Assembly (NCBI GenBank): GCA_903855135.1
Contig: CAINYB010000014.1
Span: forward strand, 1 to 55,654
DNA length: 55,654 nucleotides
Origin: an uncultured bacterium
GTDB lineage: Bacteria; Patescibacteriota; Patescibacteriia; UBA1558; GWA2-36-10
Direction: 5' to 3'
This document shows positions 17,996-30,385 of the stretch, one piece after another. The translations under genes were made by a program, and so were the position numbers. Under the pieces are notes generated by a model. The model had not been told where the DNA came from. It worked only from the letters and a program-made list of their open reading frames with translations, and ran no database searches. The number at the start of each line of letters is the position of its first letter. Within the stretch, counting starts at the first letter, position 1.

Positions 17996-18024
17996 TTGAC
18001 TAAACTTGAGCTTTAGTTTATAAT
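17996..18024 (+). promoter_or_regulatory. Sigma70-type promoter upstream of the tRNA region
   Basis: TTGACT (17996-18001), 17 nt, TATAAT (18019-24). Confidence 0.8.
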
Positions 18025-18047
18025 CTAGGCTGTTATTCAGGTAATAG

Positions 18048-18222
18048 GCCGAGATAGCTTCCCTCGACTTCGCTCGGGACTGGTGAGCTACAGTTTTGCC
18101 ACCGCCCATTCGACTACGCTCTCTTCGAGTCTGAGCGACGAGGTCGTCAGACCTCGGAGTCGATGACAGGGCGGGGTGTCGAGCTAAAGCTCTCCATAAA
18201 CTGTTAAAGGAAAAGTTTGAAT
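18048..18222 (+). pseudogene. Degenerate tRNA-Thr copy interrupted by two hairpin-element insertions
   Basis: GCCGAGATAGCT (18048-59), TGGTGAGCTACAGTTTTG (18081-98), TAAACTGT (18197-204) and GTTTGAAT match the intact tRNA-Thr in order. Confidence 0.8.
18101..18174 (-). repeat. Approx. 74 bp nested palindromic element, copy 1 (inverted relative to 30291-30363)
   Basis: Reverse complement matches 30291-30363 except 2 substitutions and a 1 nt indel. Confidence 0.93.
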
Positions 18223-18227
18223 ATCAT

Positions 18228-18303
18228 GCCGAGATAGCTCAGTTGGTAGAGCTACAGTTTTGTAAACTGTGGGTCGCAGGTTCGAATCCTGTTCTCGGCT
18301 CCA
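18228..18303 (+). tRNA. tRNA-Thr (anticodon TGT)
   Basis: Cloverleaf GCCGAGA/TCTCGGC, ACAGT-TT TGT AA-ACTGT, GGTTCGAATCC, encoded CCA. Confidence 0.97.
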
Positions 18304-18460
18304 CTCGATTCGCCTTTTGCTTCGCAAAAAGCTCACTCGTGGTCGCCGGTGCTTTTTAAGCACCTATGACCGTTTTCTTTTAGAGAATCGAGTGTCTTGC
18401 CATTCGGCCCTGAAGGGCTCAGGCCCTGAACGGGAGCGAGCGTAGCGAGTCGAAAGGCAA
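18301..18460. repeat. Structured GC-rich trailer made of stacked hairpin elements
   Basis: CACTCGATTC (18302-11) pairs with GAATCGAGTG (18385-94); inner TTTTGC-TTC-GCAAAA and GGTGCTT/AAGCACC; CCACTCGA..CTCGTGG also at 28005-28043. Confidence 0.7.
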
Positions 18461-18491: not shown

Positions 18492-18647
18492 ATGTCACAA
18501 GATTTTTTAGCTAAATTAGAATGTACTGTTTGTCACAACATTAATTACCATTCTCATCGCAATAAAAAGATTTTAAAAGAAAGATTGCAATTGAAGAAAC
18601 ACTGTACTAAATGTAAAAAACATACAGACCATAAAGAAACAAAATAA
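18492..18647 (+). CDS. rpmG: 50S ribosomal protein L33 (Zn-binding type), not in the ORF track
   Basis: MSQDFLAKLECTVCHNINYHSHRNKKILKERLQLKKHCTKCKKHTDHKETK (51 aa). Confidence 0.95.
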   Translation: MSQDFLAKLECTVCHNINYHSHRNKKILKERLQLKKHCTKCKKHTDHKETK

Positions 18648-18661
18648 TTGTTTTTCATATT

Positions 18662-18694
18662 GAACTATGTTATGATAACCATATAGCATAGTTC
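18662..18694. promoter_or_regulatory. Inverted repeat, probable operator upstream of the HTH/LAGLIDADG-like gene
   Basis: GAACTATGTTAT-N9-ATAGCATAGTTC (11/12 match), ending 7 nt before the ATG. Confidence 0.55.
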
Positions 18695-18701
18695 GATTTT
18701 T

Positions 18702-19364
18702 ATGAATAAAAAAGAAAAAGCGGTTATTTTAAGAAAGCGTGGCCAATCATTAGCAGAAATAGCTGAAATTTTAAAAATTTCCAAAAGTACAGCTTCTTTA
18801 TGGTTAAAAAGCATTGGCATTTCTAAAGCTGGTAGATTACGTTTACAAAATAGGATTACAAAAGCCAGGGTTAAGGGTGGCCAGGTAAACCACGTAAAGA
18901 AATTAGGCGATATAGAAAAAATTACTGAGTTTAGTCAAAAATTGATTAAGAATTTAAAATTTTCAAAAATTGACTATAAAATATTTTGCGCACTTCTGTA
19001 TTGGTGTGAAGGAAGTAAAGGCGGTAATTCTGTACGTTTTATTAATTCTGATCCATATTTGATTAAAACTTTTTTATTATTTTTACGTCTTGGGTTTCAG
19101 ATTAGTGAAGATAAATTTAGGGTTTGTTTACATCTGCATAAATATCACAAAATAGAGGAAGAGATCAAATATTGGTCTAATATTACAGCAATACATGGCA
19201 GTAAATTTTTAAAAATTCATCAAAAAGCAAATACAGGGAAAAGACTAAAGGATAATTATCATGGTTGTGCTTCTATTCGTTATTATGATGTGTCAGTTTT
19301 GAATGAGATAAAAATTTTGTATAAATTATTATTTATAAATAATGGGGGAGTAATTCAGTGGTAG
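18702..19364 (+). CDS. HTH + LAGLIDADG-like (homing endonuclease-related) protein overlapping tRNA-Trp
   Basis: GQSLAEIAEILKISKSTASLWLK HTH; ALLYWCEGSK..VRFINSDP LAGLIDADG-like motif; stop TAG lies in the tRNA D-arm. Confidence 0.7.
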   Translation: MNKKEKAVILRKRGQSLAEIAEILKISKSTASLWLKSIGISKAGRLRLQNRITKARVKGGQVNHVKKLGDIEKITEFSQKLIKNLKFSKIDYKIFCALLYWCEGSKGGNSVRFINSDPYLIKTFLLFLRLGFQISEDKFRVCLHLHKYHKIEEEIKYWSNITAIHGSKFLKIHQKANTGKRLKDNYHGCASIRYYDVSVLNEIKILYKLLFINNGGVIQW

Positions 19365-19417
19365 AATGTTGGTCTCCAAAACCAATCACGAGGGTTCGAT
19401 TCCTTCCTCCCCTGCCA
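19344..19417 (+). tRNA. tRNA-Trp (anticodon CCA)
   Basis: GGGGGAG/CTCCCCT acceptor, TTGGT-CT CCA AA-ACCAA, GGTTCGATTCC, encoded CCA. Confidence 0.96.
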
Positions 19418-19475: not shown

Positions 19476-19501
19476 AAAAAACGCCATTTTGGCGCTTTTT
19501 T
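19476..19501. terminator. Possible bidirectional terminator after tRNA-Trp
   Basis: A tract, CGCCA-TTT-TGGCG, T tract, between convergent units. Confidence 0.55.
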
Positions 19502-19638: not shown

Positions 19639-20223
19639 TTAGCGGCTGCTTTCTTTTTTTATTTCTAATAATAATTTTTGATGACGTTCTTTTAATTTTA
19701 CGAAAAGGTTTTCATGTTTTAATTTCGGTTCAGCAATCTTAATAAAATATTCTAATTTTTGAATCAAGATTTTTTCCATCTCAGGATTATTACCGAAACG
19801 ATAGTAATTACTATTATCTAAGATATCAGCACATTTAATCATTAGAGCTTCTTTACCAGCATATTTGGTTCTCTTAAACATTTCCTGGTATTGTTTTTTC
19901 TTGTCTTTAATTTTTGTTTTAAAAGAAACCGCAGATACTAAATTACTGATTTTTTTCCCAAATTTTTTTTCAAGATCTTTAATCGTTATTTTTGAGTCTT
20001 CTAATAAATCATGTAATGTTGCTGCAGCAATTGTCGTGGCAGGTGATCCGTTTTCTGCTAGCGAACAAGCTACTTTTAGGCTGTGAAAAATTACTGGCTT
20101 TTCATTAAAGCCACTTTTTGAATATTCAGTCATTAAAAAAATCATAGCATTTTCAATGATTTGACTGTCTTTTTTTGAGTATGCTTTTCCCATAATTTTG
20201 TCTAAACAATTTATATTGTACAC
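19639..20223 (-). CDS. HD-domain hydrolase, RelA/SpoT HD (Mesh1/small alarmone hydrolase)-like
   Basis: PVIFHSLKVA, AATLHDLLED, FGKKISNLV, IKCADILDN; alternative start ATG 20193. Confidence 0.8.
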   Translation of the reverse strand: MYNINCLDKIMGKAYSKKDSQIIENAMIFLMTEYSKSGFNEKPVIFHSLKVACSLAENGSPATTIAAATLHDLLEDSKITIKDLEKKFGKKISNLVSAVSFKTKIKDKKKQYQEMFKRTKYAGKEALMIKCADILDNSNYYRFGNNPEMEKILIQKLEYFIKIAEPKLKHENLFVKLKERHQKLLLEIKKESSR

Positions 20224-20364
20224 ATTTTTAAGATAATTATCAATTTTTGATTAAAAATTGACTAAAATGTCAATTTATGTTTATATATATCGAAATATAC
20301 CTCTTGATTGAGGGGTGTATGAACCTTAAAAAAACGAATGAAAAAATACGAAAGGAACAAGGTC

Positions 20365-21108
20365 ATGAAAAAGATTGAACTGATCGGCCTAGAGAATATC
20401 CCCTTGGTAAACAAGGGTGACGATTTGGGTCGGTTAATCATCAAGTCCGCTGTTGAACAGGGGATTGATTTTCGTCAGGGAGACATCGTCGCTGTTGCTC
20501 AGAAAATCGTTTCGAAAGCAGAGGGGCGAACCGTTGATTTGGCGATGATCGAACCATCTGTTCAGGCTCGTGAGCTTGCTGGTCAAACTGGTCGTGACCC
20601 TCGGCTCTGCCAGGTCTATTTGAATGAGTCGAGTGCTGTTCTGCGGATCAAGGGGCGAATGATTATTACGCGTCACAAGTTGGGATTTGAATGTTCCAGC
20701 GCGGGCGTAGATCGTTCAAATGTCGCTCCTCACGCAGCGGGCATCGTTGTGTTGTTGCCTGAAGATCCTGACGAAAGCGCTCGTAAAATTCGCCAGGCCA
20801 TTCGTGATCGTTTTAGAGTCACTGTCTCTGTGGTGATCACAGATTCACTTGGTCGTCATGATCGAGAAGGATCAATTGGTTTGGCGATTGGCGTGGCGGG
20901 GATTAGCCCCATAGAGGTCAGGCATCAACAAGATCTTTATGGCAATGAGGCTAAAACTGGCATTGCCATCGTTGATGAAGCATCAGCAGCAGCTTCCTTG
21001 ATCATGGGTCAGGCGGATGAGAATCTGCCGGTGGTCGTGGTCAGGGGCGTTCGCTATACCGTGGACGATCAAGCGTCAATCCAACAACTTCTGATTTTGG
21101 GAGACTGA
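20365..21108 (+). CDS. CofE-family (F420-0:gamma-glutamyl ligase-like) protein
   Basis: IPLVNKGDDL, AQKIVSKAEGR, AGVDRSN, LPEDPDESAR, ITDSLGR, MGQADENLPVVVVRG; ATG 20365 preferred. Confidence 0.88.
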   Translation: MKKIELIGLENIPLVNKGDDLGRLIIKSAVEQGIDFRQGDIVAVAQKIVSKAEGRTVDLAMIEPSVQARELAGQTGRDPRLCQVYLNESSAVLRIKGRMIITRHKLGFECSSAGVDRSNVAPHAAGIVVLLPEDPDESARKIRQAIRDRFRVTVSVVITDSLGRHDREGSIGLAIGVAGISPIEVRHQQDLYGNEAKTGIAIVDEASAAASLIMGQADENLPVVVVRGVRYTVDDQASIQQLLILGD

Positions 21109-21110
21109 TC

Positions 21111-22337
21111 ATGAATTTCTTGACTTTGAACAGAGGTTGCTTGGATCCTAATGAGCAACCATTCGAGATCGTCGAAAGGAAGGGTTTGGGTCATCCCGAT
21201 TCTTTGGCCGACGGTCTGGCTGACGCTATTTCAATTGCCTATTCCAAATACTGTTTGGATAGGTTTGGTGTGGTGCCGCATCACAACTTGGACAAGGTCT
21301 ACATCGGTGGTGGGCATTTTCTGCGAGACTACGGTTCTCGGACGATGCTCGCGCCGATTCAGCTCATCGTGAATGGTCGGATCAGTAATTCGATGGATGG
21401 ATCGGAAATTGATGTTCAGAGTATTCAGCGTGAAGCTGCCTCTGAATTTCTCGCGCCTTTGATGCCGCATTTGGATGTCGAACAGCACCTGGAGATACAT
21501 CCGAATGCAACGCAACATACGCAACGGGATTTCTGGTTTTCTCCTCGATCACGAGAAGACCTTCACGAGTTGTCTCGTCTCAAGGCAAACGACACGTCTC
21601 TGTGCGTTGCTTATGCGCCTTTGTCTGTTTGCGAACTTTTAACCATTGTCTTAGAGCAAGCCTTCTGGAATGTTCAAGAAGATGGGGGTAGGGTTCCTCG
21701 TTGGACTGACATCGGGCAAGATATCAAAGTGATGGTTCTGCGTAACGGCAGACAGATTGATGTCACGGTTTGTGCGCCTTTCATGAGCAACTCCATGAGT
21801 TTTTATGAGTATTACCTCCAACGTGTATCCGAGACTGAGTCCTTGTTGCAACAACTCGCAGAGAGTGTCGTTGGCAACAAGTATCAGGTCAAGGTGGAGG
21901 TGAATACTGCGGGCCGTCTTTACATGCTTGGTGTGGGTAGCTGCATTGAGTGTGGTGAAGAAGGCATCGTTGGACGAGGCAATTCCTCTGGAGGTTTCAT
22001 CGCCGCTGGCAGGCCTCATTCCATGGAAGCTGCTTTCGGGAAGAATCCGGTCTATCACACTGGGCGTGTTCTGGGATATCTGACGCAGAAGTTGGCTTGG
22101 GCCATCTATCGTCAGACTGGCGTTCCCAATGTCATTCACGCCTTGACGATCAACGGTGGAGGCTTGGTTCCTCCGGATAGATTGGTGATTAGTACGGCTC
22201 AGGAAGTTTCTCGTACAGCGATCGCTGATATTGTTGAGCGAGAATTTCTGAACACTGATTACCTTTCTGAGGTTTTGCGAATGCCGGCGGTATTCAGAGC
22301 TCTGAATTTCGTCGCTCAAGATCTGCAAAGGAGGTGA
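21111..22337 (+). CDS. Archaeal-type methionine adenosyltransferase (SAM synthetase) homolog
   Basis: EIVERKGLGHPDSLAD, HHNLD, ANDTS, GQDIKVM, VGRGN, SMEAAFGKNPVYHTG. Confidence 0.9.
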   Translation: MNFLTLNRGCLDPNEQPFEIVERKGLGHPDSLADGLADAISIAYSKYCLDRFGVVPHHNLDKVYIGGGHFLRDYGSRTMLAPIQLIVNGRISNSMDGSEIDVQSIQREAASEFLAPLMPHLDVEQHLEIHPNATQHTQRDFWFSPRSREDLHELSRLKANDTSLCVAYAPLSVCELLTIVLEQAFWNVQEDGGRVPRWTDIGQDIKVMVLRNGRQIDVTVCAPFMSNSMSFYEYYLQRVSETESLLQQLAESVVGNKYQVKVEVNTAGRLYMLGVGSCIECGEEGIVGRGNSSGGFIAAGRPHSMEAAFGKNPVYHTGRVLGYLTQKLAWAIYRQTGVPNVIHALTINGGGLVPPDRLVISTAQEVSRTAIADIVEREFLNTDYLSEVLRMPAVFRALNFVAQDLQRR

Positions 22338-23278
22338 TTACATTGGATCAATACAAGTGTGCCGTTATCTCTGGAGGAGTTTCGGTAAACTTCGCCAGTG
22401 ACATGCCACTTCTTGAACTGTTTAACCAATCTGGTTACACTAGGCATTTCCCGGATTTTCATTGCGTCGATCAGCACCTGTCAACACCCTATCTGGTTCA
22501 TTACCGAAACAGAGAAGAGATGACAGTCGAATACAGCGGATCGACAGCAATTCTGAACTTCCCTTGGGAATTGATGAGAAAGGGCGAAACGATTCTGTAT
22601 GCAGCCTATCCCTTTGTCGAACGTCAGTTGCAAGGACTCGGCATCGTAACGGCTCATGCTGCTGCAGTTACGTTTGGTCAGGATGGAATCATGATCATCG
22701 GTAAGATTGGTGCTGGTAAGACTTCTACTGCCATGGAATTGTGCAGGAAGCGTGGCGCCAAGCTCATTGCCAATGATTTGTGTTTGGTCGGTGGTGAAGA
22801 TGAATGTCGAATTGTGGGAGGAACGAAAGACTTCCATGTCCGACTGGAATCTGCTCGACGTAACCTACCTGATCTGGTTCCTTTTTTCTCTGAACGTCCT
22901 GGCCTCGATTCCTGGTCGAACAAGGTTGTCTTTGACCCAGTCAAACTTGGCATTCAACTGCAAGACGAACCCGTGCCCTTACGCAAGGTGGTGCTTGTTC
23001 ACGTTGATCAAAGCCAGAAACGTTTAACGGTTCAACCGAAGAGCGATTTGGTTTTGCGACTATTGTTGAACGAGAACTTCTCGCGTTACATCAGGTCCAC
23101 AACCACAACCTTACTGGGTGGTGATTCCTATGATCTTCTGGGGTACATTCCTTCGATGGATTCCCCAGAGCTTTTCGAGAGACGTAGAAGGCTCATCAAC
23201 CATATCCTCGTTGATGTGGGAGTAGTCTATGTTTCCGGTAAGGTGGAGGAAGTGGTCGATGCGGTTGCTCGACTTTAG
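22334..23278 (+). CDS. HPr kinase-related P-loop kinase
   Basis: HAAAV, GKIGAGKTS, LIANDL; GTGA overlap with the upstream stop; SD AAGGAG. Confidence 0.7.
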   Translation: MITLDQYKCAVISGGVSVNFASDMPLLELFNQSGYTRHFPDFHCVDQHLSTPYLVHYRNREEMTVEYSGSTAILNFPWELMRKGETILYAAYPFVERQLQGLGIVTAHAAAVTFGQDGIMIIGKIGAGKTSTAMELCRKRGAKLIANDLCLVGGEDECRIVGGTKDFHVRLESARRNLPDLVPFFSERPGLDSWSNKVVFDPVKLGIQLQDEPVPLRKVVLVHVDQSQKRLTVQPKSDLVLRLLLNENFSRYIRSTTTTLLGGDSYDLLGYIPSMDSPELFERRRRLINHILVDVGVVYVSGKVEEVVDAVARL

Positions 23279-30290: not shown

Positions 30291-30363
30291 CCGCCCTGTC
30301 ATCGACTCCGAGGTCTGACGACCTCGTCGCTCAGACTCGAAGAGAGCAAAGTCGAAGGGCGGT
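30291..30363 (+). repeat. Approx. 73 bp nested palindromic element, copy 2
   Basis: CCGCCCTGTCATCGACTCCGAGGTCTGACGACCTCGTCGCTCAGACTCGAAGAGAGCAAAGTCGAAGGGCGGT. Confidence 0.93.
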
Positions 30364-30385
30364 GTAGTGTGACGAGAGCGAGGCG

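Follow-up and report, generated by a model that had tools for sequence, protein, structure and literature searches.

A gene in the window (the whole 55,654-nt stretch of DNA analyzed here, from an uncultured member of the Patescibacteriota) is predicted to be a free-standing homing endonuclease element, the product of which would act as a dimer, cut the tRNA-Trp gene at the anticodon and spread together with a probably resistant tRNA-Trp allele; we consider this reading probable. The gene is part of a large family found in ultra-small bacteria; its members adjoin tRNA genes and probably propagate as selfish elements that cut DNA. An earlier, sequence-only reading had proposed a free-standing homing-endonuclease-like element targeting tRNA 5' ends. 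The fold, the insertion and the association of the family with tRNA genes were recovered in the present analysis, while the 5'-end target was not. New are the likely target, indicated by avoidance of one anticodon stem, and a predicted operator that mimics it; the stop-codon overlap is the least important part. The coordinates of the features are collected in Table 1.

Table 1. Features of the tRNA-Thr to tRNA-Trp region, in window coordinates.
Feature	Position	Strand	Basis
Sigma-70-like promoter (11/12), before the tRNA-Thr - rpmG - gene - tRNA-Trp run	17996..18024	+	Consensus match only
tRNA-Thr(TGT), host gene of the operon	18228..18303	+	ARAGORN, Rfam
rpmG (L33); likely left homology arm for homing (inferred)	18492..18647	+	Pfam L33, E 8e-14
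Inverted repeat; RNA hairpin pairing the start codon (-18.6 kcal/mol, z -5.45)	18654..18706	+	Fold scan
Predicted operator: pseudo-palindrome GTT-N6-ACC, 10 nt, GTTC	18669..18694	+	Row L038 of motif scan
ORF, 220 aa: HTH, long helix, single LAGLIDADG-fold domain	18702..19364	+	ORF list, translation, AlphaFold, structural search
N-terminal helix-turn-helix (HTH), residues ~1-40	18702..18821	+	Pfam HTH_23, E 2e-5, at cut-off; in 110/129 homologs
Helix of 42 residues (42-83), predicted to hold HTH and nuclease domain apart	18825..18950	+	AlphaFold
LAGLIDADG-fold domain, residues 87-215; motif ALLYWCEGSK; E103 (19008-19010), K106, N115	18960..19346	+	Structural, profile, conservation
Overlap: codons GGVIQW and TAG stop = tRNA-Trp positions 1-21	19344..19364	+	Letters, ARAGORN, translation
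tRNA-Trp(CCA), sole tRNA-Trp called in the genome	19344..19417	+	ARAGORN; Rfam RF00005, 66 bits
Anticodon arm (19369-19385) and T-loop GTTC (19394-19397); type of sequence expected to be cleaved where the gene is absent	19369..19397	+	tRNA comparison
Terminator-like hairpin downstream of tRNA-Trp	19476..19500	not assigned	Hairpin scan

The ORF starts 54 nt after the end of rpmG and runs into tRNA-Trp, as had been read from the letters: the protein ends in ...NNGGVIQW*, its last six codons and stop are the first 21 nt of the tRNA, and the TAG lies inside the D-loop. It is the only copy of this gene in the window's genome (0.81 Mb). An assembly artefact was ruled out, as single contigs in sequencing runs X1 and X2 cover rpmG, gene and tRNA with zero differences and pieces from run X4, which belongs to a different study, match the gene with zero differences; runs X1-X3 may be the source sample of the assembly. 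A chance overlap was also rejected, since none of the 45 other tRNA records of this genome contains the stop of an ORF of at least 100 codons (records at contig ends not being assessable), and in all loci pooled an ORF stops inside 98 of 175 family-linked tRNAs versus 16 of 359 others, most of these 16 being shadow frames as read by eye. Against a prophage or integrase island at the tRNA stands that neither a tRNA duplicate nor an integrase was detected near the gene (ORF list, Rfam scan), and that no viral, phage or plasmid carrier was found. The Rfam scan returned no intron model in the region. RNA sequencing runs contain only small shares of the window.

Several neighboring features were recorded. 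Directly behind tRNA-Thr, window positions 18304-18460 hold a GC-rich structured repeat (fold z -3.6), which is a member of a tRNA-trailing repeat family with copies directly 3' of tRNA-Ser (contig C13), tRNA-Asp (C7) and tRNA-Ala (C22) and a further copy ~70 nt behind tRNA-Cys on C18; some X1/X2 contigs are without this repeat and may come from other organisms. Positions 18045-18215 contain pieces like the 5' half of tRNA-Thr, interrupted by a ~70-nt repeat that recurs at window positions 30291-30364 and on C1, C5 and C22. Downstream lie a stand-alone HD_4 gene (19639-20223, minus strand) and a segment (20338-23278, plus strand) in which GC jumps to ~50% and which encodes F420-ligase-like and archaeal-type SAM-synthetase-like genes.

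Structure prediction had been proposed as a check on the assignment of the protein as HTH-LAGLIDADG-like. The AlphaFold model (129 homologs; pLDDT 96.5) consists of an HTH, a 42-residue helix and an alpha/beta domain. In a wide structural search of 48,161 chains, rows 1-8 were all LAGLIDADG proteins; I-DmoI was the top match (Z 7.1, rmsd 2.2, 81 residues) and WhiA (Z 6.2-6.7) as well as intein and archaeal intron endonucleases were among the top matches, scores that are modest, as a Z under 8 may mean merely a common arrangement. Foldseek with the full model gave nothing at E 0.001, the top rows being OmpA-like. A profile of 93 C-terminal domains (A2), compared with PDB sequences, had I-DmoI as its sole match (E 0.002) and aligned EGsK and the following Asn with I-DmoI E117, K120 and N129, which we take to be the active-site (catalytic) residues. 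Among 268 homologs, E103 is conserved in 267, G104 in 268, K106 in 263 and N115 in 267, and the E-G pair is invariant in the 93 family-wide domains. No Pfam or NCBIfam LAGLIDADG model reached its cut-off in the window protein; PF14528 (LAGLIDADG_3) matched 4 of the 93 domains, all below cut-off (best E 0.005), and WhiA models were absent from the Pfam matches of the window protein and its homologs. With the HTH recognized by Pfam, the fold by AlphaFold and structural search, and the profile leading to I-DmoI, the assignment holds, and the protein is shown at the level of models and profiles to combine an HTH with a single LAGLIDADG-fold domain in which catalytic-position residues are conserved. 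As there is one LAGLIDADG motif per chain, a homodimer is predicted; LAGLIDADG enzymes with a single domain work as homodimers, which has been demonstrated for I-ShaI, an enzyme of a CPR rRNA intron (PMC11270868; this and the other papers are cited from excerpts). The nuclease is thus predicted to act as a homodimer on a pseudo-palindrome, for which the palindromic operator described below would be indirect support. The window protein differs from the Trp clade at some conserved sites (Q154E, P165H, Q168K, Y173H) and shares a long branch with its closest homolog (68% identity). Structural look-alikes were listed by the ESM Atlas in Chloroflexota (row 4) and Actinomycetota (rows 5-9, TM up to 0.81).

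In order to establish how generally the family adjoins tRNA genes, a class-level set of 100 loci including the window was compiled, 96 copies of which have an intact C-terminus. The stop lies inside a tRNA in 45 of these, at most 25 nt before one in 36 and 26-100 nt before one in 5, while 10 have no tRNA; 86 of 96 copies therefore end within 100 nt of a tRNA start, which answers the question raised by the sequence-only reading of whether the 3' ends of homologs overlap tRNAs. The downstream tRNAs carry 21 labels. On a quick tree of 97 proteins the label changes 27 times (minimum 21; shuffles 77.9), and the Trp, Ala(GGC), Val(GAC), Gln, Ile, Gly and Tyr clades cross unrelated host families, so that clades, as far as such a tree resolves them, are shown to be each tied to one tRNA identity. 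Furthermore, the best 80 of 307 metagenome loci yielded 65 distinct ones after 15 identical proteins were dropped, and the gene is followed by tRNA-Trp in 64 and by no tRNA in one; 62 of these tRNAs were called by ARAGORN, that of L264 is cut by the contig end and that of L275 has a variant T-loop. The L275 tRNA-Trp, located just after the gene stop, has a GGCAGCA T-loop in place of TTCGA and was missed by ARAGORN.

The position of the stop bears on the idea that the overlap itself is selected, with tRNA maturation generating a non-stop mRNA and tmRNA tagging setting the protein level. The genome contains rnpB, rnpA, ssrA and smpB, the stop lies within the tRNA in 43 of 62 Trp-linked metagenome genes, and a comparable mechanism has been proposed for T4 segB (PMC2330249). 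However, the other 19 of 62 stop just before the tRNA, as do 77 of 175 genes in the whole family, and close homologs differ in whether the stop is inside or before. Stops are simply the first in frame, be it at tRNA positions 8-10 or 13-15, in the D-loop or in the anticodon arm. Measured from a conserved Tyr codon, tRNA +1 lies at a tightly held distance (59-64 nt in the middle half of 62 loci; sd 7 nt), and the stop lies at a looser one (sd 18 nt, a value raised by two read-throughs). It is thus nearness that is conserved, the borrowed stop being the first in frame. The borrowed stop thus looks like a by-product of tight packing, and selection for the overlap is an unlikely explanation of the family. 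Its effect is compatible with the homing model as a side effect: it follows from the geometry that RNase P acting at +1 would separate the final 21 coding nucleotides from the rest of any co-transcript; damping by RNase P and non-stop decay of output is plausible and would not be needed family-wide.

Other arrangements were encountered among the loci. A superclade (L048, L051, L055, L060, L075 and part of L082-L095) follows an upstream tRNA (Val, intron-bearing Phe or Glu); its downstream neighbor varies or is absent, and its operator spacer of 35 fits a Val(TAC) target. Endonuclease-like ORFs of 224 and 220 aa with a different LAGLIDADG-like motif (L154, L257) and Cys-rich ones of 156 and 166 aa (L045, L158), their families being assigned by eye, likewise abut or enter tRNA 5' ends. 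At L140 the match is preceded, at a distance of 17 nt, by a complete tRNA-like sequence whose anticodon loop is abnormal.

The gene had been suspected to be inserted between rpmG and tRNA-Trp, and comparison with empty alleles, a check suggested at the time, confirms this: relatives have rpmG next to tRNA-Trp and no gene. Among 89 rpmG loci without the gene that were fetched, 65 showed tRNA-Trp, and the spacer is at most 120 nt in 42 of 63 measurable loci; zero family members were found inside the 21 longer spacers. In alignments the empty spacer varies freely in length and sequence, and the inserted gene replaces it. The gene lies outside any intron or intein and is present or absent at an allelic site. 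A profile search detected the family in 66 of the 301 genomes of the class and in 75 of the 401 of the phylum, with up to 7 copies. A single protein as query matched 3,036 clusters at 50% identity, only 2 distant loci in genome contigs, and 3 of 41 genomes of relatives, both others being paralogs before tRNA-Gly. The Trp-linked copy occurs in 10 of 301 class genomes, scattered over families, and in 1 of 25 of its own family. Broken copies are present at L043, L113, L133 and L277, and dN/dS was 0.06-0.19 in 14 chosen close pairs of intact genes. No near-identical gene was seen in distant hosts, no carrier was found in viral contigs (12 pattern matches, none confirmed), phages or plasmids, and no empty allele was found in four sequencing runs. 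A published description of the family was not found in the literature searched, which misses most subscription journals and supplements.

Purifying selection, an operator-like repeat and the union of an HTH with a LAGLIDADG fold, with WhiA in the top fold matches, would also suit domesticated WhiA-like DNA-binding regulators, i.e. old paralogs beside tRNA genes that have their own operator, tune tRNA transcription, are often lost and do not cut; old paralogs would likewise give clades tied to loci. This is quite unlikely given the near-invariant Glu, Lys and Asn at catalytic positions, the scattered presence of the Trp-linked copy and the broken copies. Furthermore, regulators of this kind would not explain why linked tRNAs avoid a particular anticodon stem or acquire anticodon introns, as detailed below.

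For the homing endonuclease reading, the likely target is the anticodon arm plus T-loop, to which three lines of evidence point. The inner anticodon stem of tRNA-Trp is GGT..ACC in 56 of 65 gene-free loci versus 4 of 21 gene-linked genome loci, and in none of the 62 distinct gene-linked metagenome loci (from the best 80 of 307), where 15 other stems occur. The presence of 15 different stems beside the gene argues for avoidance of one stem and not for descent from one odd allele. Among the 4 genome loci retaining GGT..ACC, L133 is a relic, L039 is without K106 and L042 is without a clear operator. L275 is the only gene-linked one among the listed metagenome alleles with the canonical stem, and its T-loop GTTC is lost; L227, a gene fragment at a contig end, has a canonical arm. 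Similar contrasts were obtained by hand tally for the intron-free canonical arm of tRNA-Tyr (0/7 linked versus 24/41 unlinked) and tRNA-Thr(GGT) (0/6 versus 35/48), and an anticodon-loop intron is present in 4 of 6 linked versus 2 of 48 unlinked tRNA-Thr(GGT), again by hand tally. In the tree, intron-bearing tRNA-Arg(GCG) calls of ARAGORN at L122, L125, L130 and three other copies group with the Thr(GGT) genes. They probably represent tRNA-Thr(GGT) that the program spliced incorrectly.

The window's own tRNA-Trp keeps both GGT..ACC and GTTC although E103, K106 and N115 are intact. Its outer anticodon stem is absent from the 65 gene-free loci, and six of its 8 differences from L016, the most similar family allele compared, are in the outer anticodon stem and variable loop. 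The window copy is an exception to the resistance rule, which may reflect shifted specificity, weak activity or tolerance through repression.

Comparison within genera agrees with the resistance pattern in three cases: L136 (gene, altered arm) versus L319 (no gene, canonical), L041 versus L166 and L143 versus L315. In two other cases the altered tRNA exists without the gene: that of L320 is identical to L137's, and L314 has one nearly identical to that of L143, which would be expected if the gene had been lost but also if the allele came first. Altered arms were found in 9 of 65 gene-free loci, and an intact gene at 0 of the 18 loci that had been selected for such an arm; part of the contrast could therefore be due to lineage-specific variation of tRNAs. 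The gene-linked loci were drawn from the whole phylum and the 65 gene-free loci from one class; within the class only, GGT..ACC is present in 4 of 10 linked and 56 of 65 gene-free loci (p 0.003 by Fisher's test, uncorrected for the relatedness of loci). On a 153-nt rpmG tree only 4 independent pairs were supported, with 2.3 the same way and 0.0 opposite (median p 0.5), a test that has no power and in which the gene-free rows L314 and L319 were chosen after the arm had been seen. In a phylum pattern search, 94 of the 150 listed matches (450 in total) begin with ACC, by a hand count that includes chance non-tRNA matches. In the proposed model, the altered tRNA copy that usually accompanies the gene would probably be uncuttable.

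A second indication of the target was obtained upstream of the gene. The inverted repeat holds the half-sites GAAC (18662-18665) and GTTC (18691-18694), and a TG-n-TATGAT extended -10-like motif was noted by eye at 18668-18676, where the promoter scan lists no promoter. Trp-linked genes share before the start codon the palindrome consensus RGTTAYRTAACY (by eye), followed after 10 nt by GTTC. With at most 2 mismatches this motif is present in 50 of 79 Trp-linked genes versus 11.8% in shuffles, and the spacing is 6+10 in 32 of the 50. In tRNA-Trp itself, 10 nt separate ACC from the T-loop GTTC, equal to the right-hand spacing of the predicted operator. Among other clades, exact GAAC-N30-36-GTTC was detected in 19 of 102 genes versus 0.5 in shuffles. 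Allowing one mismatch, the GAAC/GTTC spacer measures 32-33 in 9 of 10 Gln genes, against 33 expected from the tRNA geometry. It measures 35 in the 4 genes with the label Leu(GAG); 3 of them lie behind tRNA-Val(TAC), for which 35 is expected. Spacers of the Gln and Val(TAC) clades equal twice the distance from anticodon centre to G53, plus one. The best reading of the upstream palindrome is a mimic of anticodon arm and T-loop serving as an autorepression operator. This putative operator fits better than a decayed 5' half of an invaded tRNA, because the motif mirrors anticodon arm plus T-loop and persists at ~45% protein identity. Both operator and tRNA would be matched by a dimer that has the nuclease in the middle and, where each long helix ends, an HTH.

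These observations also bear on where the site of attack lies. A homing endonuclease might instead attack the tRNA 5' end, the target that the sequence-only reading had named, or the junction of rpmG and tRNA in empty alleles, its own copy being protected because the insertion splits the site; the near-fixed distance of the conserved Tyr codon to tRNA +1 and the replacement of the spacer by the insertion would agree with this reading. It was not supported by comparison and is improbable, as the empty spacer is unconserved, the predicted operator mimics the anticodon arm and T-loop and not the 5' end, and the changes in linked tRNAs are located in the anticodon arm. An RNA-level factor, i.e. 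a maturase or processing helper for tRNA introns or the tRNA itself, is very improbable even though LAGLIDADG maturases exist (PMC3984707) and long introns occur in 13 of 175 linked versus 17 of 449 unlinked tRNAs, since zero Trp-linked tRNAs have an intron, most linked tRNAs are intron-free, and the HTH with a DNA-type inverted repeat of fixed spacing points to DNA binding.

According to the proposed homing mechanism, two LAGLIDADG domains would pair on the DNA pseudo-palindrome formed by any anticodon stem-loop, and the long helix would bring an HTH to the T-loop GTTC at a distance of 16-17 bp from the centre. The break would fall at about tRNA positions 34-37 and would be repaired from the gene-carrying chromosome, with rpmG as homology arm on one side and the T arm or downstream DNA on the other, such that gene and altered anticodon arm would be copied together. 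The 7-nt anticodon loop makes the palindrome odd-centred, whereas cleavage by LAGLIDADG enzymes produces overhangs of 4 nt (PMC3943268), and the cut register is therefore only approximate. Nearness to the cut would benefit the gene, and it is proposed that for this reason the gene is packed against tRNA +1 and has often lost its own stop. The protein would repress its own gene by binding the tRNA mimic that overlies the promoter. Further damping would come from the hairpin that covers the AUG and from RNase P, which would cut the pre-tRNA and so take away the stop codon.

A broader proposal, held tentatively and at slightly less than even confidence, is that of anticodon-targeting gene drives as a whole class on Patescibacteria chromosomes. 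These would be T-loop-reading HTH-LAGLIDADG homodimers with a 42-residue ruler helix, in ~20 clades each tuned to one tRNA, that leave resistant stems behind, mobilise ORF-less anticodon introns and repress themselves through a tRNA mimic. If true, part of the phylum's tRNA sequence diversity would be scars of a selfish element, which would give a cause for the variation of anticodon stems and the spread of ORF-less tRNA introns in Patescibacteria. It would also imply frequent allelic DNA exchange in uncultured Patescibacteria cells. Furthermore, the clusters matched at 50% identity would represent thousands of small natural meganuclease candidates, the target of each being readable from the adjoining tRNA and operator.

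Parallels to known systems are partial. WhiA, a transcription factor, has two LAGLIDADG domains, a C-terminal HTH and none of the catalytic acids, which it has lost; it is vertically kept and not tRNA-linked, whereas the window protein has one domain, an N-terminal HTH and the Glu retained. Shared with the family is the joining of a LAGLIDADG fold to an HTH (WhiA/DUF199; PMC3984707). I-DmoI and LAGLIDADG_3 (PF14528) gave the best profile and fold match, with the Pfam cut-off not reached. Unlike the family, I-DmoI and I-ShaI are encoded in rRNA introns and are without HTH and long helix (PMC11270868), and the excerpted text of that paper on CPR rRNA insertions makes no mention of tRNA, free-standing genes or HTH. 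A known tRNA-intron-borne nuclease targets the anticodon region of a tRNA gene, as predicted here, but sits inside the intron and belongs to another nuclease family.

Regulatory parallels are found in phage T4. I-TevI has an operator over its own promoter that resembles the homing site and is bound but hardly cut; it is, however, an intron-encoded GIY-YIG monomer, with autorepression established by experiment there and proposed from sequence here, and AUG-hiding hairpins are described for T4 endonucleases (PMC2988022). T4 SegB is likewise a free-standing homing endonuclease in a tRNA cluster, reads a conserved T-loop motif, has an AUG-sequestering hairpin and is proposed to have its message cut between last codon and stop by tRNA processing (PMC2330249). 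It tolerates sites in its own genome through tight control (PMC2330249). In contrast to the family, SegB is a phage-borne GIY-YIG enzyme that cuts tRNA 3' ends with loose specificity across tRNAs and, in the excerpted account, without a resistant isotype-specific allele (PMC2330249).

The WHO elements of Torulaspora and Lachancea share with the family a free-standing LAGLIDADG-type gene beside an essential host gene, a linked allele resistant by sequence change (here predicted), divergent families and pseudogene decay (PMC7282813). They differ in having an intein-derived two-domain nuclease with a zinc finger rather than a single-motif domain with an N-terminal HTH, and in lying downstream of a protein gene (FBA1) in diploid yeast rather than upstream of tRNA genes on a bacterial chromosome (PMC7282813). 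WHO loci also have a duplicated host 3' fragment and tandem clusters (PMC7282813), whereas the family has ~20 target-specific clades and no host-gene duplicate was found. The gene is a member of neither WHO nor SegB and at most works like WHO, its cleavage being predicted from sequence; the family would then be a chromosomal bacterial counterpart of the yeast WHO elements, aimed at tRNA genes.
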